From contig JAWKJK010000006.1 in the NCBI GenBank assembly GCA_041393815.1, forward strand, positions 19,002-83,001: DNA of 64,000 bases, written 5' to 3'. The stretch is from Candidatus Nanopelagicales bacterium (lineage in GTDB: Bacteria > Actinomycetota > Actinomycetes > S36-B12 > JAWKJK01). The notes under the pieces were generated by a model, which saw only the letters and a list, made by a program, of their open reading frames with translations, had not been told where the DNA came from and searched no databases. Below, in pieces: positions 35,035-45,910 of the stretch (position 1 is the stretch's first letter; every line of letters begins with the position of its first letter). Position numbers and translations under genes: made by a program.

Positions 35035-35103
35035 GACTCAGCGCAGCGGGGAAGACTCAGCGCAGCGGGGAAGACTCAGCGCAGCGGGGGTGACTCAGCG
35101 CAG
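35035..35103. repeat. 19-bp tandem repeat (3.6 copies) GACTCAGCGCAGCGGGGAA overlapping the stop codon of the upstream membrane-protein gene
   Basis: Copies lie at 35035-35053, 35054-35072 (identical), 35073-35091 (2 changes) and 35092-35103 (partial). The last copy contains the stop (TCA 35095-35097) and the final codons of the 35095-37191 gene. Confidence 0.9.
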
Positions 35104-37191
35104 GTCGCGCAGCCAGTGCGCCCCCGCGCGGCCGAGGCCACGGACACTCTCCCAGCGGGCCCCGGCGAGCACGAGCAGACCGCCGGCCACCGCGAACGAC
35201 ACCCACTGCGGGAGGAACCTCCCGAGGTCGACCAGCTGCACCGCCGTCACCGCGACCAGCATCAGTGCCGCCGGGATGACGACCCCGGCCCAGCGGCGCC
35301 AGGCGCCGAGCACCACCAGGGCGGCGCCGACGACGAACAGCGCCGCAACCCGCACCTGGTAGGCGGTCGACACGGACCCGCCGTCGAGCGTCCACCGGGT
35401 CAGGGCGTCCTGGACCACGGCGATCGTCGTGGGGGCCAGGGCCAGTGCCAGGGCCGGGCCGACCACCGCCAGCGACGGCGTGCGGGCCGGACGGCGCAGC
35501 CACCAGAACAGCCCGCCGGACACCCCGGCGAGCACCCCCAGGGCCGCCCCCGCGATCTCCGGAGCCCAGGGGGTCTCGAGGTCGGCCAGCTGTCCCAGCG
35601 GCACCAGGGCGCCGACGAGCAGCCCGCCGGCCAGCCACACGCTCCACGCGGGGAGTGGGCGTCGCAGTGCCTCGCCCCACCCGGCCAGGCCCAGCAGTGT
35701 CAGCGCGATGACCGTCGCCCACAGGGCGGCGTCCGAAGTCGTCCCCTCCTGGCCGGGGACGGTGGCCATCAACCAGGCGAGCAGCCCGGCACCGGTGGCC
35801 ACCAGAGCGGCAAGCCCGCTGGCCCGACTCGACTCACGGGTCAGCTCGGCCAGCACCACGAGGACGGCGGACAGGGCGACCCCTGCGACCGCTCCGTTCC
35901 CTACCGCCGCGTCGATGGCCCAGGGGGCGGCCGCGAGGCCGACCGCCGTCCCGAGCGCGGCCGCGGCGACCAGGCTGAGCCAGGGGCGCAGGCCCGGGGG
36001 CGTGTGGGTGCGGGCCCACCACGCGACGCCGGCGACCGCGGCCAGCGCGAGCGCGGACCACGGACGGCTGCTCGGTTGGGCCACACCCGAGCCGAAGGCG
36101 ACCAGGGCGGCGACGGTGACCTGCACCGCCGCGGCGAGGGCCGGCTCGGGCCGGTGCTCCGGCAGCAGCCGGACCAGCAGCGCCGAGAGGGCGGCGAGCG
36201 CCAGCAGGACGGCCGAACCGACGAGCGGCCGGACCGCGTCCCCGACCGAGGCCTCGCCCGCGACGAAGACGGCAGCGGCGCCGGAGCCGACCAGCAGCGA
36301 CAGCGCGGCCAGTGCCGGCCAGGTCACCACGGGGTAGCGAGCGTGCAGCAGCAGCAGCCCGACACCGCCCAGGAGCAGGACCGCCGCGACCCACCACGCC
36401 CACGGCTCGGCCAGCGGCACTGCGGCGTCGGCCGGGGCGGACGCGAGCAGCCCCAGCGCGAGGGCCGCCCCGGTGAGGGCGGCGACCTCTCCCACGCCGC
36501 GCATCCGGGTGCGCAGCCACCCGCCGACCGCGGCCAGCAGGACCGCCGCAGCGAGGCTGGCCGCCAGGGACAGGGTCGGTCCCAGGGGGTCCGCGCCCAG
36601 GACCCGCGTGGCCACGCAGCCGACGGCGACGAGGAGCGCCCCGACGACGCCCAGCGTCGTGGCCGTTCCCGGGAGCCGCCGGTGCAGCCGCAGCCCCGCG
36701 AGCAGGGCCACCGCGCCGATGGCGTACAGCAGGCTCAGCTGACCGATCGGGCCGAGCAGGTCCCAGGCGACGGCCGCGAAGGCGATCCCGGCCAGCACCA
36801 GCAGCACGGCACCGCCGACGAGCAGCAGCGTCCCTACGCCCAGGGGCGGCGTGGGCGTCGCGGCGACGGTGGCGGGGGGCGCGCTCGGGGCCCCGGGCCG
36901 CATGGGCGTGACTGTCGGCACCGGCGTGACGGTCGGCATCGCGATGGCCCGCACCGACCAGTCGTCGGGGAGATCGTCGGAGGCGAGGCGGTCGCGCAGC
37001 CAGTTCGCCCGCGCCCGGGCCCAGTCCGCCCACGCTGTCAGGCCGCCCAGCTCGTCCAGCGCCGCGACGGGCATGGTCAGGGAGCACGACGGACAGGTGA
37101 CCGTCCCGGCCGGGGACGGGGAGGGCAGCGAGGCCCCGCAGCGCGCACACGTCAGCCCGGCGGCTGCCGGGCCCACACGCATCTCCGTCAT
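35095..37191 (-). CDS. Polytopic membrane protein with N-terminal zinc-ribbon (698 aa), family not recognised
   Basis: N-terminal CxxC-x17-CxxC (CARCG...CPSC) followed by ~18-20 Ala/Leu/Gly-rich hydrophobic segments. Confidence 0.6.
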   Translation of the reverse strand: MTEMRVGPAAAGLTCARCGASLPSPSPAGTVTCPSCSLTMPVAALDELGGLTAWADWARARANWLRDRLASDDLPDDWSVRAIAMPTVTPVPTVTPMRPGAPSAPPATVAATPTPPLGVGTLLLVGGAVLLVLAGIAFAAVAWDLLGPIGQLSLLYAIGAVALLAGLRLHRRLPGTATTLGVVGALLVAVGCVATRVLGADPLGPTLSLAASLAAAVLLAAVGGWLRTRMRGVGEVAALTGAALALGLLASAPADAAVPLAEPWAWWVAAVLLLGGVGLLLLHARYPVVTWPALAALSLLVGSGAAAVFVAGEASVGDAVRPLVGSAVLLALAALSALLVRLLPEHRPEPALAAAVQVTVAALVAFGSGVAQPSSRPWSALALAAVAGVAWWARTHTPPGLRPWLSLVAAAALGTAVGLAAAPWAIDAAVGNGAVAGVALSAVLVVLAELTRESSRASGLAALVATGAGLLAWLMATVPGQEGTTSDAALWATVIALTLLGLAGWGEALRRPLPAWSVWLAGGLLVGALVPLGQLADLETPWAPEIAGAALGVLAGVSGGLFWWLRRPARTPSLAVVGPALALALAPTTIAVVQDALTRWTLDGGSVSTAYQVRVAALFVVGAALVVLGAWRRWAGVVIPAALMLVAVTAVQLVDLGRFLPQWVSFAVAGGLLVLAGARWESVRGLGRAGAHWLRDLR

Positions 37192-37306
37192 ACGTCCAGC
37201 GTGATCGCCCCGCGGGTCCGGGGGTCAGGGCCAAAGGCTTCCGAAACGACTCAGCGCCCCCACCTCGAAGGGCGGGAGCGCCGGTCAGGCCGTCGATCAG
37301 AACGGG

Positions 37307-37357
37307 TGCGCCGCCAGGGACTCGAACCCCGAACCCGCGGATGAGGAGTCCGCTGCT
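37307..37357 (-). pseudogene. Truncated tRNA-Lys copy (3' 51 nt only: anticodon stem to acceptor 3' strand)
   Basis: Identical to tRNA-Lys positions 40278-40328 except for 2 substitutions in the anticodon loop (CTCCTCA vs CTCTTAA). No complementary 5' acceptor strand (GCGCCGC) exists upstream. Confidence 0.85.
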
Positions 37358-37631
37358 GCCTCGTCTGCAGTTGTCCGTCGGTGTCCATGTTCTCAAGCGG
37401 GACAGTGACAGTGACTTCTTCGTGTCCATGGTCGTCCGTGGCCGACCGCCACGATGGATGCCGGAATGGATGCCGCTGCGCGACCCATGCAGAGCGCGTG
37501 TCGGCAGCCATCCCCGCGGGTCACCGACGTGATGGACAGGTAGCGGTGGCCGGGCTAGATTCCGCGAGCCTCCTTTCGGCGAGGTGCCCCCACGGCGCGT
37601 GGGGCCGCTGCGGGGGACGAGGGGACGGGGC

Positions 37632-40187
37632 ATGCCGTCGATGGTGGCTGGGCCGGGCTGGGGTGTCGGCGTCCGTCGGGTGGTGGCGGCCGTGTCCGCT
37701 GTCGGGCTGGCTGCTGGGCTGATGGTGGGGACCGCGGGTGCCGCGTCCGCGGCCACGTTCACGGTGACCAACCTGAATGACTCGGGAGCGGGCTCGCTGC
37801 GGCAGGCGATACTCGACGCGAACGGTTCTCCTGGTGCCGACATCATCACGTTCGCAGTGACGGGCACGATCACCTTGAGCAGCGGTGAGTTGTGGGTGCA
37901 GCCCGGGGGGCTCACGATCCAGGGTCCGGGAGCGGGCCAGTTGATCATCGATGGGAACAACGCCACCAGGGTGCTGCTCATCGATGCTGGGAGCACGTCG
38001 GCTCTTGCCGGGGTCACCATCAGACGCGGCAGCACATCGGCCGAGTTCACCCAAGTGGGCGGTGGCATCTTGAACCTGGGCACGTTGTCGGTGACCGACT
38101 CCGTGATCTCCGGCAACTCCGCCGGCGTTGGCGGAGGCATGGCCAACACCGGCACGGCGACGGTGACCGACTCCGTGATCTCGGGAAATCTCGCGTCCAG
38201 TGGCGGAGGCATCAACAACGCCGGCACGGCGACGGTGGTCAACTCCGTGATCTCCGGAAACACCGCCGGCGTTGGCGGAGGCATGGCCAACACCGGCACG
38301 GCGACGGTGACCGACTCCACGATCTCCGCGAACAGCGCAACCAACGCCGGTGGCATCGACAACACCGACACGCTGTCGGTGACCGACTCCACGATCTCCG
38401 GGAATACAGCTGCTCTCGCGGCCGGTGGCATCTGGAACAGAGACCCGGCCAGCACGGCGACGGTGACCGACTCCACGATCTCCGGGAACACCGCCGACAG
38501 TGGCGGAGGCATGACCAACACCGGAACGGCGACGGTGACCGACTCCACGATCTCCGGGAACTCGGCCACCACCGCAGGCGGCGGCGTCTTCAATACCGGA
38601 ACGGCGACGGTGACAGCCTCCACGATCTCCGGGAACTCGGCCACCACCGCAGGCGGCGGCGCCTACAACATCGGCACGGCGATTGTGCGTGGCTCGATCG
38701 TCGCGAACAGCGTGGGTGCGGATTGCTCCGGACCAGTGCTCTGGCTCGGGGTGAACCTGGTCGAGGACGGTTCGTGTTTGCCACCGCCGGGAACGTTGAC
38801 CGGTGATCCAGATCTGTTTGGCTTGGACGACTACGGGGGGCCGACGAAGACTCTGCTGCCGAAGCCGGGCAGTCCTGTCGTTGACGCCGGTGGTCCGACC
38901 TGTGCGACGGCGGCGGATCAGCGGGGTGAGCCGCGTCCGCAGGGGATGGGCTGTGACCTGGGATCGGTGGAAACCCAGCCGGGCCCGTTGGCGTTCACCA
39001 GCGGGGCCTTCGGAGCCACCACGGTCGGGACAGCGGCACCGCTGTCGGTGACGGTGACCAACCCGGACACCGCCGAGACCAAATCGGTGCCGTCGACCAT
39101 CACCGCTACCGGTTCGGGCGTGACCGTGACCGGGGGAACCTGCTCGGTGGGCACCCCGATCCCCGTGGCCGGGGCGTGCACGGTGCTCTTGGCCTGGTCC
39201 CCGACCTCCGCTGGGGCCCTGTCCGGGGCTGCCTTGACCATCGGCTACCCGGTCGGGAACAGCGACACCCTCCCGTTGACCGGCACCGCGACCGCTGTCA
39301 TCCCACCTGTTGCGCTGACCGTGCCGGGCCCACCCACAGGAGTGACCGCCGCGCCGGGTGACGGCAAGGCCACGGTGTCGTGGACCGCGCCTGGATCCAA
39401 CGGCGGGTCGGCGATCACCGGGTACGTGGTCCAGCAGTCCGTCGACGCCGGCACCACCTGGACCGCCGCGGCCGGCTCCCCCGCCGCAGCGACCGCGACC
39501 TCGCTGACCGTGACCGGGCTGACCAACGGCATCAACGTGTCCTTCCGCGTCGCGGCGACCAACGCCGTCGGCCAAGGCCCCTGGTCCGCCCCTTCGGTCC
39601 CTGTGACTCCGGCCTCGGGCGCGGGACCGACGCCTCCGCCCGGCACGGCCACGGTGACGGTCACCTCACCGGCGGCGAGTGGGTCGCAGATCTCCAGCAA
39701 CGGCTACTTCGGGGTCTCCGCCACCAGCACCGGCATCCCCGCCGGCACCACCGCCTACGTCACCCTCAACGGATCCGCCAAGGCCTCCACCACCGTGCAA
39801 GCCGGCGGCGCCATCCGCTTCGACGGCACCCCCATCGGCGGCAACCAGTGGATCCCCGCCGAGACCGGTACCTACGCCGTACGCATCGGCGGCGGCGGCG
39901 GCAGCCCCGTGCTGGCCACCTCCAGCACCTTCACCCTGGTGATCATCCCGTTCGGGCTCAACGGACGGAACGGCAACCGGTACACCGTGCTGCCGGGCAA
40001 CTTCTCCCCCGGCACCACCGTGTACCTGACCCGCAACTCCGCCACCGTGGCCTCGGGCAAGGTCCAGACCAAGGAACAACCCTTCACCATCACCGGCCCC
40101 ACCACACCAGGCACCTACCAGATCTGGGTCGCCTCCAACCAAGGCCGCGTCTACGGCGACCACGCCGGAGTCATCACCATCCGTTAG
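37632..40187 (+). CDS. Secreted right-handed beta-helix repeat protein (CSLREA-like N-terminus / choice-of-anchor-Q-like) with Ig-like, FN3 and C-terminal beta domains
   Basis: Signal peptide ...GTAGAASA. Contains 'TNLNDSGAGSLRQAILDAN'. About 10 rungs of 'GGG(M/I)xNxGTATVTDSxISGN' follow, then 'DDYGGPTKTLLPKPGSPVVDAG...DQRGEPRP...CDLGSVE' and FN3 'PTGVTAAPGDGKATVSWTAPGSNGGSAITGYVV'. Confidence 0.8.
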   Translation: MPSMVAGPGWGVGVRRVVAAVSAVGLAAGLMVGTAGAASAATFTVTNLNDSGAGSLRQAILDANGSPGADIITFAVTGTITLSSGELWVQPGGLTIQGPGAGQLIIDGNNATRVLLIDAGSTSALAGVTIRRGSTSAEFTQVGGGILNLGTLSVTDSVISGNSAGVGGGMANTGTATVTDSVISGNLASSGGGINNAGTATVVNSVISGNTAGVGGGMANTGTATVTDSTISANSATNAGGIDNTDTLSVTDSTISGNTAALAAGGIWNRDPASTATVTDSTISGNTADSGGGMTNTGTATVTDSTISGNSATTAGGGVFNTGTATVTASTISGNSATTAGGGAYNIGTAIVRGSIVANSVGADCSGPVLWLGVNLVEDGSCLPPPGTLTGDPDLFGLDDYGGPTKTLLPKPGSPVVDAGGPTCATAADQRGEPRPQGMGCDLGSVETQPGPLAFTSGAFGATTVGTAAPLSVTVTNPDTAETKSVPSTITATGSGVTVTGGTCSVGTPIPVAGACTVLLAWSPTSAGALSGAALTIGYPVGNSDTLPLTGTATAVIPPVALTVPGPPTGVTAAPGDGKATVSWTAPGSNGGSAITGYVVQQSVDAGTTWTAAAGSPAAATATSLTVTGLTNGINVSFRVAATNAVGQGPWSAPSVPVTPASGAGPTPPPGTATVTVTSPAASGSQISSNGYFGVSATSTGIPAGTTAYVTLNGSAKASTTVQAGGAIRFDGTPIGGNQWIPAETGTYAVRIGGGGGSPVLATSSTFTLVIIPFGLNGRNGNRYTVLPGNFSPGTTVYLTRNSATVASGKVQTKEQPFTITGPTTPGTYQIWVASNQGRVYGDHAGVITIR
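38079..38712 (+). repeat. Tandem ~60-66 bp coding repeats (beta-helix rungs)
   Basis: Recurrent 'ACGGCGACGGTGACCGACTCC(A/G)(C/T)GATCTCCGG(G/A/C)AAC' blocks are visible at ~38157, 38292, 38455, 38527 and 38599. Confidence 0.8.
39342..40181 (+). repeat. Left arm of a ~0.8-kb inverted repeat (3' end of the beta-helix gene)
   Basis: Encodes an FN3 plus C-terminal module nearly identical to the reverse complement of 43027-43836. Protein alignment shows scattered substitutions and one ~10-aa indel (ASGAGPTPPPGT). Confidence 0.85.
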
Positions 40188-40232
40188 ACCAGGTCAGCGC
40201 CAGGACGCGCGTCCCCCAGCCCACTCATGCGA

Positions 40233-40269
40233 ACGGCCCCTGGCTGCGTCGTCGCAGGTCAGGGGCCGT
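40233..40269. terminator. Strong compound hairpin between the beta-helix gene stop and the tRNA-Lys 3' end
   Basis: ACGGCCCCTG (40233-40242) pairs with CAGGGGCCGT (40260-40269). The inner stem is CTGCG-tcgt-CGCAG (40244-40257). Confidence 0.6.
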
Positions 40270-40277
40270 ATCACGGG

Positions 40278-40350
40278 TGCGCCGCCAGGGACTCGAACCC
40301 CGAACCCGCGGATTAAGAGTCCGCTGCTCTGCCAGTTGAGCTAGCGGCGC
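40278..40350 (-). tRNA. tRNA-Lys (anticodon CUU)
   Basis: The reverse complement reads GCGCCGC-TA-GCTC-AACTGGCA-GAGC-A-GCGGA-CTCTTAA-TCCGC-GGGTT-CGGGG-TTCGAGT-CCCTG-GCGGCGC-A, a 73-nt cloverleaf. CCA is not encoded. A TAGATT -10 candidate (complement of 40360-40365) lies 9 nt upstream. Confidence 0.9.
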
Positions 40351-40444
40351 GTGGCGCAGAATCTAGCACCCGGTCGGTGGGACCGGGAAATCGCGCAGAC
40401 GACTACACAGAGCGACCGAACCGCGTCGGCGTTGAGGTGCGGGC

Positions 40445-40591
40445 TCAGTGCACCCGCATCCTCCGCTGCCGCTCGGACTCGAGGATCTCCTCCGAGCGCG
40501 GGCCGGTCGGGTCAGCCAGATCCATGAGGAGCGTCAGCGGGATTCCGCTGCGCAGCAACCTCATGACGTCTACCCCCGAGTTCTGCGCCAT
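40445..40591 (-). CDS. Small hypothetical protein (48 aa) downstream of pxpC
   Basis: ATG 40591 is preceded by GGAGG (8 nt). Sequence: MAQNSGVDVMRLLRSGIPLTLLMDLADPTGPRSEEILESERQRRMRVH. The longer 90-aa track ORF extension lacks an SD. Confidence 0.4.
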   Translation of the reverse strand: MAQNSGVDVMRLLRSGIPLTLLMDLADPTGPRSEEILESERQRRMRVH

Positions 40592-40682
40592 TCTGGTCAC
40601 CTCCGCGGTCACACCCCTCTTGTCGGTCCCGCGCAGGCCCGGTTGGTGGGCCGAAAGGGTGATTCTCGCCACGGGGCTGTGG

Positions 40683-41555
40683 TCAGCGCTGCGTGACCAC
40701 GAGGCGGACCCGGTCACCCGACCGGAGCTGGGCGCAGCGGTCCTGGTCGGCCTCGCGCAGCACGGCTACCACCGGGTAGCCGCCGGTCGTCGGGTGGTCC
40801 GGCCCCATGATCACCGGGGTCCCGTCCGGGGGCACCTGCAGCGCGCCGCGGACCAGCGGTTCCGACGGCAGCTCCCCGGTGACGACCCGCTCCAGGGCGG
40901 GCCCCGTCAGCCGGATGCCGACGCGGTCCGATCGGGTGGACACCTCGTACGTGGCGGCGCCGAGCAGAGCCCGCGCCCCGTCGGTGAACCAGTCCCAGCG
41001 CGGCCCGGGGAGGGCCGCGAGCGGGACCGGCTCGCCGTACGCGGGGACCGGGACGTGGTCCACCGCCGGGACCGGGCCGACCGCGGCGCCGACCGGCAGG
41101 CGGCCGCCGGCCGTCAGCGGCTCCGGTCCGAGGCCGGCCAGGGTGTCCCGGCTGCGCGACCCCAGCACCGGCGGGACGGACAGCCCGCCGCGCACGGCGA
41201 CGTACGCCCGCAGCCCGGACGCGGCCGGGCCCAGGACGAGGACCTGACCGGGCGCGACGGTGAGCGGGGTGCCCCGGTCCACGGCCCGGTCGTCGACGGT
41301 GAGCGCTCCGCGGCACCCGGTCACCGCGACCGTCACCGGGGCGTCCACCGCCCGGACAGCGAGACCGCCGAGCAGGCACTCCAGCCCGGCGGCACCCTCA
41401 GGGTTGCCGACCAGCCGGTTGGCCAGCCGCAGCGCGGCCCGGTCGTACGCCCCGGACGCGGTCACGGCCAGCCTCCCCAGGCCCGGCCGGCCCAGGTCCT
41501 GCACCGTGGTCAGCGGTCCGGCCGAGACCACCTCCAGCGCCGCGCGCGCGGTCAC
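40683..41555 (-). CDS. pxpC: 5-oxoprolinase subunit PxpC (KipA / allophanate hydrolase subunit 2 family)
   Basis: 'LEVVSAGPLTTVQDLGRPG...GVTASGAYD', plus operon context with pxpA and pxpB and a 4-nt overlap. Confidence 0.85.
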   Translation of the reverse strand: MTARAALEVVSAGPLTTVQDLGRPGLGRLAVTASGAYDRAALRLANRLVGNPEGAAGLECLLGGLAVRAVDAPVTVAVTGCRGALTVDDRAVDRGTPLTVAPGQVLVLGPAASGLRAYVAVRGGLSVPPVLGSRSRDTLAGLGPEPLTAGGRLPVGAAVGPVPAVDHVPVPAYGEPVPLAALPGPRWDWFTDGARALLGAATYEVSTRSDRVGIRLTGPALERVVTGELPSEPLVRGALQVPPDGTPVIMGPDHPTTGGYPVVAVLREADQDRCAQLRSGDRVRLVVTQR

Positions 41556-42178
41556 CCGTCGTCCCGGGGCACGAACCGCACCCTCGTCCCCGGCTCCAGG
41601 ACCGCGGGGCGCCGTCGCCGCTCGTCGAACAGGGCCACCGTCGTGGTGCCCAGCAGCCGCCAGCCCCCCGGGGACTCGCGCGGGTAGACCGCGGCGTACG
41701 TCGACGCGATCGCCACGGCGCCGCGGGGCACCCGGGTGCGCGGGGTGGGCAGCCTCGGTACGTGCAGCGCCGGGTCGAGTCCGGTCAGGTACGCGAACCC
41801 GGGCGCGAAGCCGCAGAAGGCCACCTCGTACTCGACGGCGGTGTGCGCTTGCACCACCTCGGTCGGCGTGAGCCGGGAGAGCCGGGCCACCTCGGTGAGG
41901 TCCGGGCCGTCGTAGGCCACCTCGATCTCGACCAGGTGGCGCACGGCCTGCGCGCGGGGTAGCGGTCTCAACCCGGCCAGCGCACCCGCGACCGCGTCCA
42001 CCGAGGCCCGGCGTCGGTCGACGCGGACCAGGACGGTACGCGCGCCCGGGACCGACTCCACGACCCCGGCCAGCAGCCCCGACCCGACGGCGTCCTCGAG
42101 CGCGCGGACCAGGTCATGGACGTCCTCGTCGGTCTCCAGCAGCACCGCGGACTCGCCGTACGGGAGCACCCGGGTCAT
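41552..42178 (-). CDS. pxpB: 5-oxoprolinase subunit PxpB (KipI / allophanate hydrolase subunit 1 family)
   Basis: ATG 42178 overlaps the pxpA stop (ATGA). Contains 'VLPYGESAVLLE...', 'FCGFAPGFAYL' and 'RTRVPRGAVAIA'. The 464-aa track ORF is an out-of-context extension over pxpA. Confidence 0.85.
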   Translation of the reverse strand: MTRVLPYGESAVLLETDEDVHDLVRALEDAVGSGLLAGVVESVPGARTVLVRVDRRRASVDAVAGALAGLRPLPRAQAVRHLVEIEVAYDGPDLTEVARLSRLTPTEVVQAHTAVEYEVAFCGFAPGFAYLTGLDPALHVPRLPTPRTRVPRGAVAIASTYAAVYPRESPGGWRLLGTTTVALFDERRRRPAVLEPGTRVRFVPRDDG

Positions 42179-42954
42179 GGCCGCCGCGCAGGGGGAGGGG
42201 CGAACGCCTCCAGGGCGACACCGGCAGCGGTCAGGGCGGTATGGATCGCCCGGGCCAGGTCGACGGCCCCCGGGGTGTCCCCGTGCAGGCACACGCTGCG
42301 GGCGTCCACGCGCACGTCGGCGCCGTCGACCGTGCGGACGGCGCGCTCGGAGGTGAGCCGCAGCACCCGCAGGACCACTTCGTGCCGATCGGTGACGACG
42401 GAGGCGTGGTGGGTGCGCGGCAGCAGTCGGCCCTCGCGGGTGTAGGCGCGGTCGGCGAAGGCCTCGCCCACCGCGTGCATGCCGCGCTCCCGGGCGGCGG
42501 CCGCGAGCGCCGAGCCGGGCAGGGTCAGGAGGGGCAGCCGCTCGTCGTACGCGGCCACGGAGGCGACCACGGCGGCGGCGACCCGGTGCTCGGTGGCGGC
42601 GGCGTGGTAGAGCGCTCCGTGCGGCTTCACGTACGTGACCGCCGTGCCGGCGGCGCGGGCGTGCTCGTCGAGGGCGGCGAGCTGGTCGGTCAGCTGCGCG
42701 ATCAGCGTCGCCGCCGAGACGTCGACGTGGCGCCGACCGAATCCCTCGCGGTCGACGTACGAGACCTGGGCGCCGACCGCGACACCGGACTCGGCGGCGG
42801 CGACGCAGACCCGACGCATCGACACGGCGTCGCCGGCGTGGCCGCCGCACGCGACGTTGGCACTGGTGACCACGGTCAGCAGCGCGGCATCCACCTCGGC
42901 GCCGAGGGATCCCTCGAGCTCGCCGAGGTCGGCGTTGAGGTCCCACACGGCCAC
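42175..42954 (-). CDS. pxpA: 5-oxoprolinase subunit PxpA (LamB/YcsF family)
   Basis: 'DLNADLGE', 'NVACGGHAGD' and 'VKPHGALY' are LamB/YcsF signatures. Confidence 0.9.
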   Translation of the reverse strand: MAVWDLNADLGELEGSLGAEVDAALLTVVTSANVACGGHAGDAVSMRRVCVAAAESGVAVGAQVSYVDREGFGRRHVDVSAATLIAQLTDQLAALDEHARAAGTAVTYVKPHGALYHAAATEHRVAAAVVASVAAYDERLPLLTLPGSALAAAARERGMHAVGEAFADRAYTREGRLLPRTHHASVVTDRHEVVLRVLRLTSERAVRTVDGADVRVDARSVCLHGDTPGAVDLARAIHTALTAAGVALEAFAPPPARRP

Positions 42955-43020
42955 GGTCCGACCGTACCCCGCGTGGGGACGGCCGGACCGTGGCCGATCA
43001 GCTCGCCGGCTGCGCTGTTG

Positions 43021-44973
43021 TCAGGGGATGGTGATGACGCCGGCGTGGTCGCCGTAGACGCGGCCTTGGTTGGAGGCGACCCAGATCTGGTAGGTGCCTG
43101 GTGTGGTGGGGCCGGTGATGGTGAAGGGCTGTTCCTTGGTCTGGACCTTTCCGGAGGCGACGGTGGCGGAGTTGCGGGTCAGGTACACGGTGGTGCCGGG
43201 GGAGAAGTTGCCCGGCAGCACGGTGTACTTGTTGCCGCTGCGGCCGTTGAGGCCGAACGGGATGATCACCAGGGTGAAGGTGCTGGAGGTCGCCAGCACG
43301 GGGCTGCTGCCGCCGCCGATGCGCACGGCGTAGGTGCCGGTCTCGGCGGGGATCCACTGGTTGCCGCCGATGGCTGTGCCGTCGAAGCGGATGGCGCCGC
43401 TGGCTTGCACGGTGGTGGAGGCCTTGGCGGATCCGTTGAGGGTGACGTAGGCGGTGGTGCCGGCGGGGATGCCGGTGCTGACCGCGGAGACCCCGAAGTA
43501 GCCGTTGCTGGAGATCTGCGACCCGCTGGCCGCCGGTGAGGTGACGGTCACGGTGGCGCCGGCGCCGGGGGTGACCGGGACCGAGGGGGTGGAGTACGGG
43601 CCCTGCCCGACGGCGTTGGTCGCCGCGACGCGGAAGGACACGTTGATGCCGTTGGTCAGGCCGGTGACCTCCAGGGAGGTCGCGGTCGGACCGGCGGGGG
43701 AGCCGGCCGCGGGGGTCCAGGTGGTGCCGGCGTCGACGGACTGCTGGACCACGTACCCGGTGATCGCCGACCCGCCGTCGGATCCAGGCGCGGTCCACGA
43801 CACGGTGGCCTTGCCGTCACCCGGCGCGGCGGTCACCCCCGTCGGCGCACCGGGCACCGACGCGGGGATCGAGCAGGTGAAGCCGGCCGGGACCGTGTCG
43901 TAGTACTGGATCACACCGTCCGCCCACTGGTCCCAGCCGTAGGCGATCGGGTGGTACCAGGTCGACACCTCGTAGCCGGAGGTGAAGGGCTTGACGAACC
44001 AGGCGTTGCTGTTGTCGGCCCCGGAATTCGCGTTGAGTTCGTGGCCTGCGAAGACCTCCCGTGCCACGTCGCTGTAGTACGTACGGGGGGTGCACCAACC
44101 GCCGTTCATCGCTGCGATGACCTGACGCTGAACTTCGCTGCCAGCGTCCCCGAGTTGCCTCACTGCGGCGTTCGCGTTGTAGGTGCCAAGCATGAGCGGC
44201 ACGTTTGGGGCCAAGTACGGGTAGCCCTCGTAGATCAGGACGGCGTCCGGGCGCATCCTGGCCCGCACCGCCCGAAGCGTGTCCAGAACCGCGGTCTTCA
44301 ACGCGGGGAGCTTGCTCTGTGCGGCGTTCACCGCGTTCTCGCAGTTAGTTGCGCTTTGGAAGACGAAGCACCACTCCACGATTGTGCTGAAGCCGATGTC
44401 GTTGCCGCCGATCGTCAGCAGGACCACATCGGCGGTGGTGTCCACAGCGTCGATCTGCGGCTCCATGTAGGGGCTGCACAGGATGGTCCCGGTGGCTTCC
44501 CGGGTGGTGGAGTTGAAGTCGAACGACTGCGCGCTGTAGCTGTATCTCTCGTCGGGCAGGCTCGGCGTCGGGCAGACGTCGTTCTGCTCCGCGAGGGCGA
44601 CATAGTCCGCCTCGGTGAAGGTGCCGGAACCCGGGATGGTCTGGTTGAAGGGCACCTGCGGCTTGGTGATGTCCACTCCGGACAGCACATACGTGCCGGT
44701 GATGTTGGCGGTCACCGCCCCGCTGCAGGCCCGGTTCACGTAGGTCGCGCCCTGGGACGCGGCGAACTGGCCGCCCCAGTTCATCGGGCTGCGGAAGCAG
44801 TCGTTGTTCGCCGGGACGTAGTCCTGGGTGCCGTTGCCCGCGGAGTAGGAGTCGCCGAGTTGGACCACCTTCTGCACCGGCGGCCCGGCGGCGGCCGGTC
44901 CGGCGCTGGCAACGACGGCGGGCGCACTGACCGCGACCAGGAGGGTGGCGAGCAGGGCCATGCGTGTTCTCAC
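43021..44973 (-). CDS. Secreted SGNH/GDSL hydrolase with FN3 and the same C-terminal beta module as the beta-helix protein
   Basis: GTG 44973 (or ATG 44961) gives the signal peptide RTRMALLATLLVAVSAPAVVASA. Block I 'LGDSYSAGNG' and block III 'IGGNDIGF'. The C-terminal ~270 aa are nearly identical to those of the 37632-40187 product. A hand-counted GC sample (44341-44400) is ~53%. Confidence 0.8.
   Translation of the reverse strand: MRTRMALLATLLVAVSAPAVVASAGPAAAGPPVQKVVQLGDSYSAGNGTQDYVPANNDCFRSPMNWGGQFAASQGATYVNRACSGAVTANITGTYVLSGVDITKPQVPFNQTIPGSGTFTEADYVALAEQNDVCPTPSLPDERYSYSAQSFDFNSTTREATGTILCSPYMEPQIDAVDTTADVVLLTIGGNDIGFSTIVEWCFVFQSATNCENAVNAAQSKLPALKTAVLDTLRAVRARMRPDAVLIYEGYPYLAPNVPLMLGTYNANAAVRQLGDAGSEVQRQVIAAMNGGWCTPRTYYSDVAREVFAGHELNANSGADNSNAWFVKPFTSGYEVSTWYHPIAYGWDQWADGVIQYYDTVPAGFTCSIPASVPGAPTGVTAAPGDGKATVSWTAPGSDGGSAITGYVVQQSVDAGTTWTPAAGSPAGPTATSLEVTGLTNGINVSFRVAATNAVGQGPYSTPSVPVTPGAGATVTVTSPAASGSQISSNGYFGVSAVSTGIPAGTTAYVTLNGSAKASTTVQASGAIRFDGTAIGGNQWIPAETGTYAVRIGGGSSPVLATSSTFTLVIIPFGLNGRSGNKYTVLPGNFSPGTTVYLTRNSATVASGKVQTKEQPFTITGPTTPGTYQIWVASNQGRVYGDHAGVITIP
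43027..43836 (-). repeat. Right arm of the ~0.8-kb inverted repeat (3' end of the SGNH hydrolase gene)
   Basis: Its reverse complement matches 39342-40181. Identity stops at the last sense codon (ATC ACC ATC then CCC TGA vs CGT TAG). Confidence 0.85.
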
Positions 44974-45172
44974 GGGAGAGACTCCGAGGGGATGCAGGAT
45001 TTTGTCGACCCCCGCCACCCCGCCGTGGAGGAGCAACCGCCGGGCGCCGCCCCACCCGGTCGATGAGGCGCGCCGAACGTAACACGCCCCCGCCGCGTGG
45101 GCCGGGGAGCGCCTCGCGGGTGAACGATGGTGACCGGGCCGCCGCAGAGCAGACAGAAGGGGACGTGCACCG

Positions 45173-45910
45173 ATGGAGCTGACCCGGGTGCGTCGGGATG
45201 CGCGCGACTGGCCGCAGGACCAGCTCGAGGCCCTGTTCCGTGACGGCTTCCCCCCGTTCATCGTCGCGGATGTCGACGCCGAGCGGATGCTGCCGGAGAT
45301 CGGGGAGTCCTTCGCCGACCTTGACGTCTTCCTGCTCGACGGCGACGGGGTCGTCGTTGCCGGCGGGTGGGGAGTCGCGCTGGGGTGGGACGAGAGCGTC
45401 GAGGACCTGCCGACCGGCTACACCGACAGCCTGCGCCGGGCGCTGCGCGACCGCGCGGACGGGCGCGCACCCGACACCTTCGTGCTGTGCGCCGGCATCG
45501 TGCGCCCGGACCGGCACGGACGCGGACTCGCGGCCGACCTGGTCACCTCGTTGTGCGACCTGGCGGAGGAGCGGGGCCTGGCCCAGGTGATCGCGCCCGT
45601 GCGCCCCACCCTCAAGCCGCGCTACCCGCTTACGCCGATCGACGAGTACGTCACCTGGACCCGGGAGGACGGGTCACCGCTGGACCCCTGGCTCCGCACC
45701 CACCTGCGGATCGGGGGCCGGATCCTCGCCACCGCACCACGTTCGCAGGTCATGACCGGGACCGTCGCTCAGTGGGAGGGGTGGTGCTCGATGGCGTTTC
45801 CCGCCAGCGGCGACTACGTGATCCCCGACGGCCTGAGCGTGCTCACGGTCGACCGTGACCAGGACCTCGGCACGTACGTGGAGCCCAACGTCTGGGTGCG
45901 GCACCGCTGA
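45173..45910 (+). CDS. Putative GNAT-like N-acetyltransferase
   Basis: 245 aa. The 'GIVRPDRHGRGLAADLV' stretch resembles GNAT motif A (Q/RxxGxG/A). Otherwise weakly recognisable. Confidence 0.5.
   Translation: MELTRVRRDARDWPQDQLEALFRDGFPPFIVADVDAERMLPEIGESFADLDVFLLDGDGVVVAGGWGVALGWDESVEDLPTGYTDSLRRALRDRADGRAPDTFVLCAGIVRPDRHGRGLAADLVTSLCDLAEERGLAQVIAPVRPTLKPRYPLTPIDEYVTWTREDGSPLDPWLRTHLRIGGRILATAPRSQVMTGTVAQWEGWCSMAFPASGDYVIPDGLSVLTVDRDQDLGTYVEPNVWVRHR

Follow-up and report, generated by a model that had tools for sequence, protein, structure and literature searches.

A tRNA-Lys(CUU)-Bounded Single-Gene Islet in a Candidatus Nanopelagicales Genome Is Probably the Remnant of a Decayed Integrative Element

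Introduction

How did a single gene for a secreted protein come to be flanked on one side by an intact tRNA gene and on the other by a displaced copy of the tRNA 3' end? The locus that raises this question is in a metagenome-assembled genome (MAG) of Candidatus Nanopelagicales, and we analyzed it within a 64,000-nt stretch of contig JAWKJK010000006.1 (assembly GCA_041393815.1, positions 19,002 to 83,001, forward strand), hereafter the window, in whose coordinates all positions are given. The element of interest, hereafter the islet, is the interval 37358-40272, which separates an intact tRNA-Lys(CUU) gene from a fragment of it and carries a gene, here called the cargo gene, for a protein with a right-handed parallel beta-helix. 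A preliminary description made from the DNA letters alone had proposed that the islet is a decayed or minimal island that delivered the beta-helix gene or, alternatively, a local duplication.

An intact tRNA gene (tDNA) with its cognate 3' fragment downstream in the same orientation is the signature by which Islander recognizes tDNA islands, an integrase gene being required by its filter (PMC4383910). In addition, two symmetric sublocations within tRNA genes have been described for tyrosine integrases (10.1101/2020.11.02.365908). Our analyses lead us to consider it on balance probable that the islet is what remains of an integrative element, which a tyrosine integrase inserted into the 3' part of tRNA-Lys(CUU) and which has since decayed, although its cargo gene has a more complicated history than simple delivery.

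Results

A 56-nt Direct Repeat Derived from tRNA-Lys(CUU) Bounds the Islet

The features that define the islet and its edges are as follows:

37240-37301, minus strand: flank beside the tRNA fragment, with a strong hairpin (-35.2 kcal/mol, z = -3.2); the sequence adjoining the fragment on its 37301 side is TCTGATCGACGGCCTGACC
37302-37357, minus strand: displaced tRNA-Lys(CUU) 3' fragment, the distal repeat, resembling an attachment (att) site; tRNA positions 23-73 plus five trailer nucleotides
37358-37631, plus strand: non-coding left end of the islet, 274 nt, 68.6% GC, with a sigma-70-like site at 37533-37561
37632-40187, plus strand: cargo gene, 851 aa, a 'choice-of-anchor Q' right-handed parallel beta-helix
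40233-40269, no strand assigned: GC-rich hairpin separating the cargo stop codon from the tRNA 3' end (-33.5 kcal/mol, z = -5.5)
40273-40328, minus strand: proximal repeat copy, within and just past the intact tRNA-Lys
40278-40350, minus strand: intact tRNA-Lys(CUU) (Rfam RF00005, 65.3 bits)

A repeat finder detected two copies of a 56-nt direct repeat, at 37302-37357 and 40273-40328, which are identical at 54 of 56 positions (96%), and blastn-short found no third copy in the window. Sub-patterns of 24-28 nt from the repeat occurred twice in the window and in none of 100 shuffles. The right copy comprises positions 23-73 of the tRNA (51 nt), that is, the 3' strand of the D-stem, the anticodon arm and the T arm up to the discriminator base, followed by five nucleotides of trailer. 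It belongs to the sole tRNA-Lys of the window, for which ARAGORN gave the limits 40276-40350 and the anticodon ctt. Both copies are on the minus strand in the same orientation, and the fragment, at lower coordinates, lies on the 3' side of the tRNA-Lys. The repeat finder, Rfam and ARAGORN thus agree on the repeat as it had been described initially, in both its coordinates and its content.

The left copy was called as a tRNA by neither ARAGORN nor Rfam. A search for a degenerate tRNA 5' half beside it gave a local alignment score of 13 (p = 0.13 versus random window segments), which leaves a decayed full-length tandem tRNA at this position unsupported and accords with the earlier observation that the 5' half is absent. 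The only two differences between the copies fall, as had also been noted, in the anticodon loop, which reads CTCCTCA in the left copy and CTCTTAA in the right one; the chance that two random mismatches would both be located in this 7-nt loop is 0.014. A weaker similarity that had been reported to extend about 20 nt further left is marginally present (p ~0.05). However, a GGCC(C)CTGACC-like motif also occurs 3' of tRNA-Lys in the unrelated contigs L100, L099 and L093, and therefore this outward similarity is poor evidence for a longer duplication.

A strong hairpin adjoins each copy. The one beside the fragment is ~110 nt upstream of the start codon of a membrane-protein gene, and its region presumably represents the original terminator region downstream of tRNA-Lys. 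The hairpin next to the intact gene likely terminates transcription from both sides, that of the cargo gene and that of the convergent tRNA-Lys.

The Islet Holds One Secreted Beta-Helix Gene and No Integrase Gene

The 2915 nt between the repeat copies contain one credible gene. Its product is 100% identical to the NCBI entry 'choice-of-anchor Q domain-containing protein [Candidatus Nanopelagicales bacterium]', and an exact-protein look-up returned no record for this protein or for the membrane ORF (open reading frame; longest start). The domain layout consists of an N-terminal signal peptide (signal-like by inspection), a beta-helix of 24-aa coils, a choice-of-anchor Q domain, an Ig-like (ASH) domain, an Fn3 domain and a C-terminal module. 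The NCBIfam model NF041518 matched with 60.2 bits (cutoff 25), and Pfam identified Fn3 as well as an ASH-like Ig domain, the latter with 23.8 bits, below its gathering cutoff of 27. The 24-residue repeats were visible to the repeat finder as a 72-nt periodicity. An AlphaFold model of residues 41-554 (26 homologs) had a pLDDT > 90 over its first 330 residues, with three short strands in each 24-residue coil, and its Foldseek neighbors at probability 1.0 were right-handed parallel beta-helices, among them Rhombotarget A (9cdu/9cdv), the A-module of the AlgE4 epimerase, pectate and alginate lyases (PL6/PL9) and phage tailspikes. The cargo is confirmed as a secreted beta-helix protein, and by its modelled fold it may be either an adhesin or a polysaccharide-active enzyme.

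Besides itself, the protein has no homolog with > 50% identity, and its best homolog, <= 50% identical, matches over the helix only. A PDB sequence search returned Fn3 matches only. The same was true of the viral contigs searched with the cargo protein, which gave only Fn3-level matches, so the similar beta-helix genes that the preliminary description had suggested looking for on phages did not emerge there.

We looked for integration genes at several levels. Pfam, NCBIfam, PHROGs and tblastn found no integrase domain in the islet, where hits were limited to fn3, ASH and choice_anch_Q in its single ORF. In addition, tblastn of three viral tyrosine integrases against the whole window gave noise only, with no integrase pseudogene remnant, and Pfam scans of ~25 flanking ORFs (roughly 20-57 kb) revealed no recombinase. 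PHROGs assigned no family to the cargo protein or to ORFs in the non-coding end of the islet. That end, 37358-37631, has no protein-family match and no similarity to viral att arms, and upstream of the cargo gene it contains the sigma-70-like site TGGACA-17-TAGATT. The initial statement that one secreted beta-helix gene and no integrase lie between the copies therefore stands. A prophage remnant was also considered and was rejected because PHROGs yielded no phage structural, lysis or regulatory genes or pseudogenes and the viral contigs matched at the Fn3 level only.

As a side observation on the cargo gene, its beta-helix coils are encoded at 38047-38690 by eight to nine tandem units of 72-75 nt (24-25 aa, GGGxxNxGTATVTDSxISGNxA), some of which are 89% identical to each other. 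These near-identical units probably explain the fragmentation of the gene in short-read unitig assemblies.

The Islet Is the Most Deviant Part of the Window in Composition

The GC values that had been counted by hand for three short segments were exact on computation (0.55, 0.617 and 0.717). At 69.2%, the GC content of the islet as a whole is below that of the window on average (73.0%) and of the flanks (76-78%); just 0.8% of segments of equal size are as GC-poor, and the minimum of the window lies within the islet. The tetranucleotide distance from the window average is maximal at 37.5-40.5 kb (z = 4.0 over the whole window). The GC content at third codon positions (GC3) is 0.835 in the N-terminal two thirds of the cargo gene versus 0.943 +/- 0.020 in 25 reference genes, and it climbs along the gene from ~0.83 to 0.93 toward the 3' end. 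The computation of GC and k-mers that had been called for thus identified the islet as the most deviant part of the window.

The Same tRNA End Serves Viral Contigs as an Attachment Sequence

The exact 30-nt 3' end of this tRNA-Lys was present in 13 IMG/VR viral contigs, in nine of which it occurs as a fragment and not as a whole tRNA. The fragments start at the anticodon arm in L091, L097 and L100, at the contig start in L092, and at the T arm in L088-L090, L095 and L096; L098 has a T-arm-type match, where ARAGORN calls tRNA-Lys(ttt). These two boundaries match the two sublocations known for tyrosine integrases. The L091 fragment (IMGVR_UViG_3300005535_000040) matches the window tRNA without a difference from position 25 to its end (49 nt), including the anticodon loop, while the islet fragment starts from position 23. 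A PF00589 integrase gene is found 68 nt away from the L091 fragment, and in L097 (IMGVR_UViG_3300036801_000212; like L091, an integrase-bearing actinobacterial viral contig) and L095 the integrase gene is 50-170 nt from the fragment. The 3' end of tRNA-Lys(CUU) is therefore used as an attachment sequence by integrase-bearing viral contigs, and the islet repeat resembles an attL/attR pair located at the anticodon-loop sublocation.

The L091 integrase gene runs toward the 3' end of its tRNA fragment, and in the window it is the cargo gene, likewise convergent, that fills the spot beside the intact tRNA-Lys. By analogy, this arrangement would fit the loss of an integrase gene. The islet ends had no similarity to the sequences flanking the viral fragments, and the genes of the viral fragment contigs had no homolog in the islet.

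Independent Unitigs End Where the Repeats Predict

Since the window comes from a MAG, it was checked against independent Logan unitigs (k=31 de Bruijn). Unitig L082, reported in 10 samples, matches 35060-37331 exactly, and unitig L081, reported in nine samples, matches 40319-43069 exactly. The end of L082 is exactly 30 nt (k-1) into the left repeat copy. A k=31 unitig must stop there if a second sequence shares everything from 37302 on, including the five non-tRNA nucleotides. The end of L081 is exactly 30 nt past a single mismatch, at 43039, between the arms of the inverted repeat described below. As both unitigs end at the predicted points, both repeats must be present, with the boundaries seen in the MAG, in those samples. 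Independent contigs thus corroborate the boundaries of both repeats, and none spans the inner junctions 37357/37358 and 40272/40273.

The 3' Part of the Cargo Gene Is an Inverted Near-Copy of a Resident Gene End

An 860-nt inverted repeat connects the cargo gene to a gene outside the islet:

39321-40182, plus strand: arm A, the Fn3 and C-terminal module of the cargo gene
43026-43857, minus strand: arm B, the Fn3 and C-terminal module of the GDSL-lipase gene, outside the islet
43021-45261, minus strand: resident GDSL-lipase/Fn3 gene

The last 288 aa of the cargo are 91% identical to the C-terminus of the GDSL-lipase/Fn3 protein. Identity between the arms by segment is 89-96%, from 89% at the Fn3 end to 95-96% at the 3' end, and the differences amount to 62 substitutions, 41 of them at codon position 3, and 30 gap nucleotides. 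The homology starts at a domain boundary and ends at the stop codons, with no non-coding flank in common, and the GC3 of the module is 0.95 in the GDSL copy and 0.906 in the cargo copy. Searches of metagenome contigs (JGI) with the GDSL protein gave only Fn3-level matches of 43-54% identity. Because its 3' 860 nt form an inverted near-copy of the GDSL 3' end, the cargo gene is a mosaic and not simply delivered cargo. On sequence comparison, the pattern fits a compositionally foreign gene whose 3' part may have been converted by, or grafted from, the resident GDSL copy; the similarity of the modules is directly observed, while we infer the direction and timing of the exchange.

The arms bracket tRNA-Lys, the 48-aa ORF, pxpC, pxpB and pxpA, and recombination between them would flip this block. 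The part of the GDSL gene that encodes the catalytic N-terminal part (43858-45261, minus strand) has a GC content of 63-65% at 43950-44700 and a GC3 of 0.878, and it is not present beside pxpA in any relative examined. This N-terminal part may be a second, independent acquisition across the conserved block.

The Site Downstream of tRNA-Lys Varies among Relatives

Relatives were compared with the window by gene-wise tblastn. Two neighbors of the islet are relevant here:

35095-37191, minus strand: gene for a polytopic membrane protein, 698 aa, with an N-terminal Cys-rich segment and an SCO7613-type C-terminal domain
40445-43020, minus strand: conserved host block of the 48-aa ORF (40445-40591), pxpC (40683-41555), pxpB and pxpA

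The order pxpABC, small ORF and tRNA-Lys(CUU) is kept in the same orientation in the nearest relatives (L103, L104, L106 and L006), each of which has a single tRNA-Lys with a hairpin directly after it and without a 3' fragment. The genes beyond tRNA-Lys differ in each of the three loci that reach past it (L104, L106 and L006), and this site is therefore variable. These relatives are not close: the best non-self PxpC is 62% identical (54% for the best among the matches listed in genome contigs) and the best membrane protein is 68% identical.

The tRNA-Lys of L003-L005 has the opposite orientation with respect to pxp, and homologs of genes from ~25-30 kb of the window (cbi genes, bcp, then tRNA-Leu) are within ~1 kb of it. 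Relative to these loci, ~10 kb of the window (30.9-40.3 kb) is extra. The closest relatives of the membrane protein (56-68% identity; L084, L085 and L086) are encoded between rpsO-pnp and ribF-truB with no tRNA nearby, and rpsO, pnp, ribF and truB are all absent from the window; judging from gene order, the gene has been relocated in this lineage or is a paralog. Together, these comparisons mark the region downstream of tRNA-Lys as variable and rearrangement-prone, and they do not single out the islet as one discrete insertion.

Several further observations were made at these loci. The ORF between pxpC and tRNA-Lys, of 45-54 aa, carries the motif ...LR.G(I/V).LTL.MDL... and is without family assignment; it is found at 40445-40591 (minus strand) in the window, 10953-11090 in L006, 11009-11152 in L103, 5143-5286 in L104 and 10969-11133 in L106. 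Just past tRNA-Lys in L104 (5634-6160) are two small overlapping ORFs, one with a faint RHH_1 match, which look like a toxin-antitoxin pair and would be another sign of a variable site. The tRNA-Lys sequence itself has a mosaic pattern among lineages, as the D and anticodon arms of the window gene match those of L103, L104 and L006, and its T arm and acceptor 3' strand match L106, L003-L005 and viral att fragments. Lastly, the extra region in the comparison with L003-L005 (30940-37191 plus the islet) is bordered by a block of cpn10-like, cbi, bcp and tRNA-Leu(tag) genes and contains an MMPL transporter gene, a gene for a 448-aa protein with a weak delta-60-repeat match, the membrane-protein gene and the islet.

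Discussion

In this study, we sought to explain a one-gene interval flanked by the two ends of a tRNA-derived repeat, and we favor its being a decayed integrative element for several reasons. The intact tDNA with its cognate downstream 3' fragment in the same orientation fits the Islander signature (PMC4383910), and the extent of the repeat fits the anticodon-loop sublocation of tyrosine integrases (10.1101/2020.11.02.365908), with both mismatches in the very loop expected to host the crossover (p = 0.014). In viral contigs, the same tRNA-Lys fragment is found 50-170 nt from genes for tyrosine integrases. The composition of the islet is the most deviant of the window, its cargo is without homologs > 50% identical except itself, and the nearest relatives have one tRNA-Lys, no fragment and variable downstream genes. 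A different strong hairpin follows each tRNA copy, as would be expected if the one at the fragment were the host terminator and the one at the tRNA had been supplied by the element. Furthermore, the Logan unitig ends fall exactly where the two repeats predict.

The sequence of events would have been as follows. A tyrosine integrase would have inserted the element into the 3' part of tRNA-Lys(CUU), recombining site-specifically at the anticodon-loop sublocation. The element would have brought along a tRNA stretch of its own, reaching from the anticodon arm to the 3' end, thereby rebuilding an intact tRNA at 40278-40350, and the original 3' end of the host, with its own terminator hairpin, would have been displaced by 2.97 kb to 37302-37357. 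The integrase and all other genes of the element would have been lost later, leaving an att-flanked single-gene islet. The 3' third of the cargo gene would have been homogenized by gene conversion with the neighboring GDSL-lipase gene, or recruited from it. Accordingly worded, the initial proposal survives in part: an integration scar is the best explanation of the geometry, the composition and the viral fragments, but to say that the island delivered the beta-helix gene is too simple since the 3' 860 nt mirror the GDSL gene.

A number of results weigh against a decayed element. In neither the islet nor the rest of the window was an integrase, excisionase, relaxase, replication or phage gene found, or a detectable pseudogene of one. 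No empty site was seen, because there was no close relative in the genome, metagenome and protein collections searched, and the left flank has itself been rearranged in this lineage, as the membrane-protein gene sits elsewhere in its closest relatives. The compositional signal is open to other readings: the internal 72-nt beta-helix repeats may supply part of the tetranucleotide deviation, and the N-terminal part of the resident GDSL gene is also low in GC3 (0.878), such that low GC3 may partly be a trait of secreted-protein genes in this genome. Finally, the 3' 860 nt of the cargo gene are ~90-93% nucleotide-identical to the inverted end of a resident gene 3 kb away. Such a likeness would not be expected of a gene of purely foreign origin, and it shows that local recombination has shaped the locus.

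It is this last result that suggests a local, integrase-independent rearrangement, in which the tRNA 3' end was duplicated, the beta-helix gene was built or inserted by illegitimate or homology-driven recombination and the repeat is a by-product. Possible routes are a tandem-inversion duplication with deletions or recombination via the shared Fn3/C-terminal module. The inverted duplicate ties the cargo gene to the GDSL gene across the tRNA-pxp block, and a tandem-inversion duplication running from the tRNA 3' end to the GDSL 3' end, followed by deletions, would yield direct tRNA-end repeats around an inverted module; the lack of any mobile-element gene, the rearranged left flank and the weak similarity past the repeat (p ~0.05) are also compatible with such an origin. 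However, a segmental event predicts a co-duplicated non-coding flank, whereas the arm homology starts at a domain boundary and stops at stop codons, and the 1.96 kb of promoter region and beta-helix, with the most deviant composition, have no counterpart or source in the window. Tandem-inversion duplication was rejected as the main explanation on these grounds. The local duplication that had been offered initially fails in its direct, tandem form, as the sequence between the repeats is not repeated after the second one, nothing else is repeated in direct orientation and the only other long repeat is inverted. Moreover, the repeat boundary coincides with the attP boundaries of integrase-bearing viral contigs, and altogether we consider a local rearrangement unlikely.

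We rate as quite improbable that the islet is one unit of a larger composite variable region formed by accretion, with an outer boundary at ~30.9 kb and with the MMPL, 448-aa and SCO7613-like proteins also imported. Tandem accretion at att sites is well documented (PMC5704250), the 30.9-40.3 kb region is extra compared with the distant relatives L003-L005, and the membrane-protein gene occupies another, conserved locus in its closest relatives. Nevertheless, the window has no third tRNA-Lys fragment, the MMPL, 448-aa and membrane-protein genes are native-like (GC3 0.94-0.96), and the inversion of tRNA-Lys versus pxp in L003-L005 means that there is no clean pair of inserted and empty sites. 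A metagenome misassembly, that is, a chimeric contig joined via tRNA or module repeats of different populations, seems to us very unlikely. In its favor, the sequence comes from a MAG, mis-joins classically occur at tRNA genes and at repeats such as the 860-nt one, and no independent contig crosses 37357/37358 or 40272/40273. But a join through a shared tRNA would not produce a left copy that ends in non-tRNA sequence, L082 and L081 are 100% identical to the window and break at 37331 and 43069 as the repeats predict, and the 62 substitutions between the arms are at odds with a collapsed repeat.

Returning to an element integrated at tRNA-Lys, there is a slim chance that the islet is a still-mobilizable, integrase-less single-gene cassette. 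The integrases of L091-like phages or elements passing through would recognize both of its tRNA-Lys att copies and carry a surface-protein head from host to host, where recombination with a resident Fn3/C-terminal anchoring module, in this case that of the GDSL lipase, would then adapt the head to the new host. If true, secreted proteins would be diversified in two steps in this sparsely sampled actinobacterial lineage, first by site-specific delivery and then by homologous grafting of a module.

An integrase-made tRNA scar is a common kind of genome scar and ordinary biology, and our results leave current understanding unchanged. The value of the islet is mainly for MAG annotation and as a worked example of a decayed island: it is a precisely bounded example of a tRNA-Lys(CUU) integration hot spot in a little-sampled high-GC lineage (Candidatus Nanopelagicales), and such remnants would be missed by island finders that require an integrase. 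In addition, through the inverted module that they share, a gene that was probably imported and a resident gene for a secreted protein provide a concrete instance of domains being exchanged.

Comparison with Known Systems

The islet shares with the islands identified by Islander (PMC4383910) an intact tDNA, a displaced cognate 3' fragment, precise ends and anomalous composition. It differs from them in being without an integrase gene and in having 2.9 kb and one gene, far below the typical island size. Its geometry thus agrees with the Islander signature in every respect but the integrase gene. The viral attP sequences of L091 and L097 have the same tRNA-Lys(CUU) 3' sequence, with a 5' boundary in L091 within 2 nt of that of the islet fragment, although there the fragment adjoins a PF00589 tyrosine integrase gene, whereas the islet has no integrase and no flanks or genes in common with them.

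A further parallel may be the cis-mobilizable element (CIME), which the decayed element proposed here would resemble. The islet is likewise flanked by two att-like repeats from a tRNA 3' end, near-identical to each other and with two anticodon-loop mismatches between them, and is without integration or transfer genes; by analogy, it could in principle be excised or co-mobilized by the integrase of an incoming element with the same specificity. The definition of CIMEs comes from Firmicutes, where excision or accretion was demonstrated in experiments, whereas the islet is known from sequence, has no cognate integrase in the window and carries no remnant genes that would tie it to an integrative and conjugative (ICE) or mobilizable element. 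A composite island at a tRNA-Lys gene is described in a review of integrative and mobilizable elements (IMEs). As for its cargo, the protein shares with the choice-of-anchor Q/CSLREA-type beta-helix surface proteins (NF041518) the domain, the 24-residue coils and the modelled beta-helix, and it is distinguished from them by its lineage-specific Fn3 and C-terminal module, which it has in common with the GDSL lipase.

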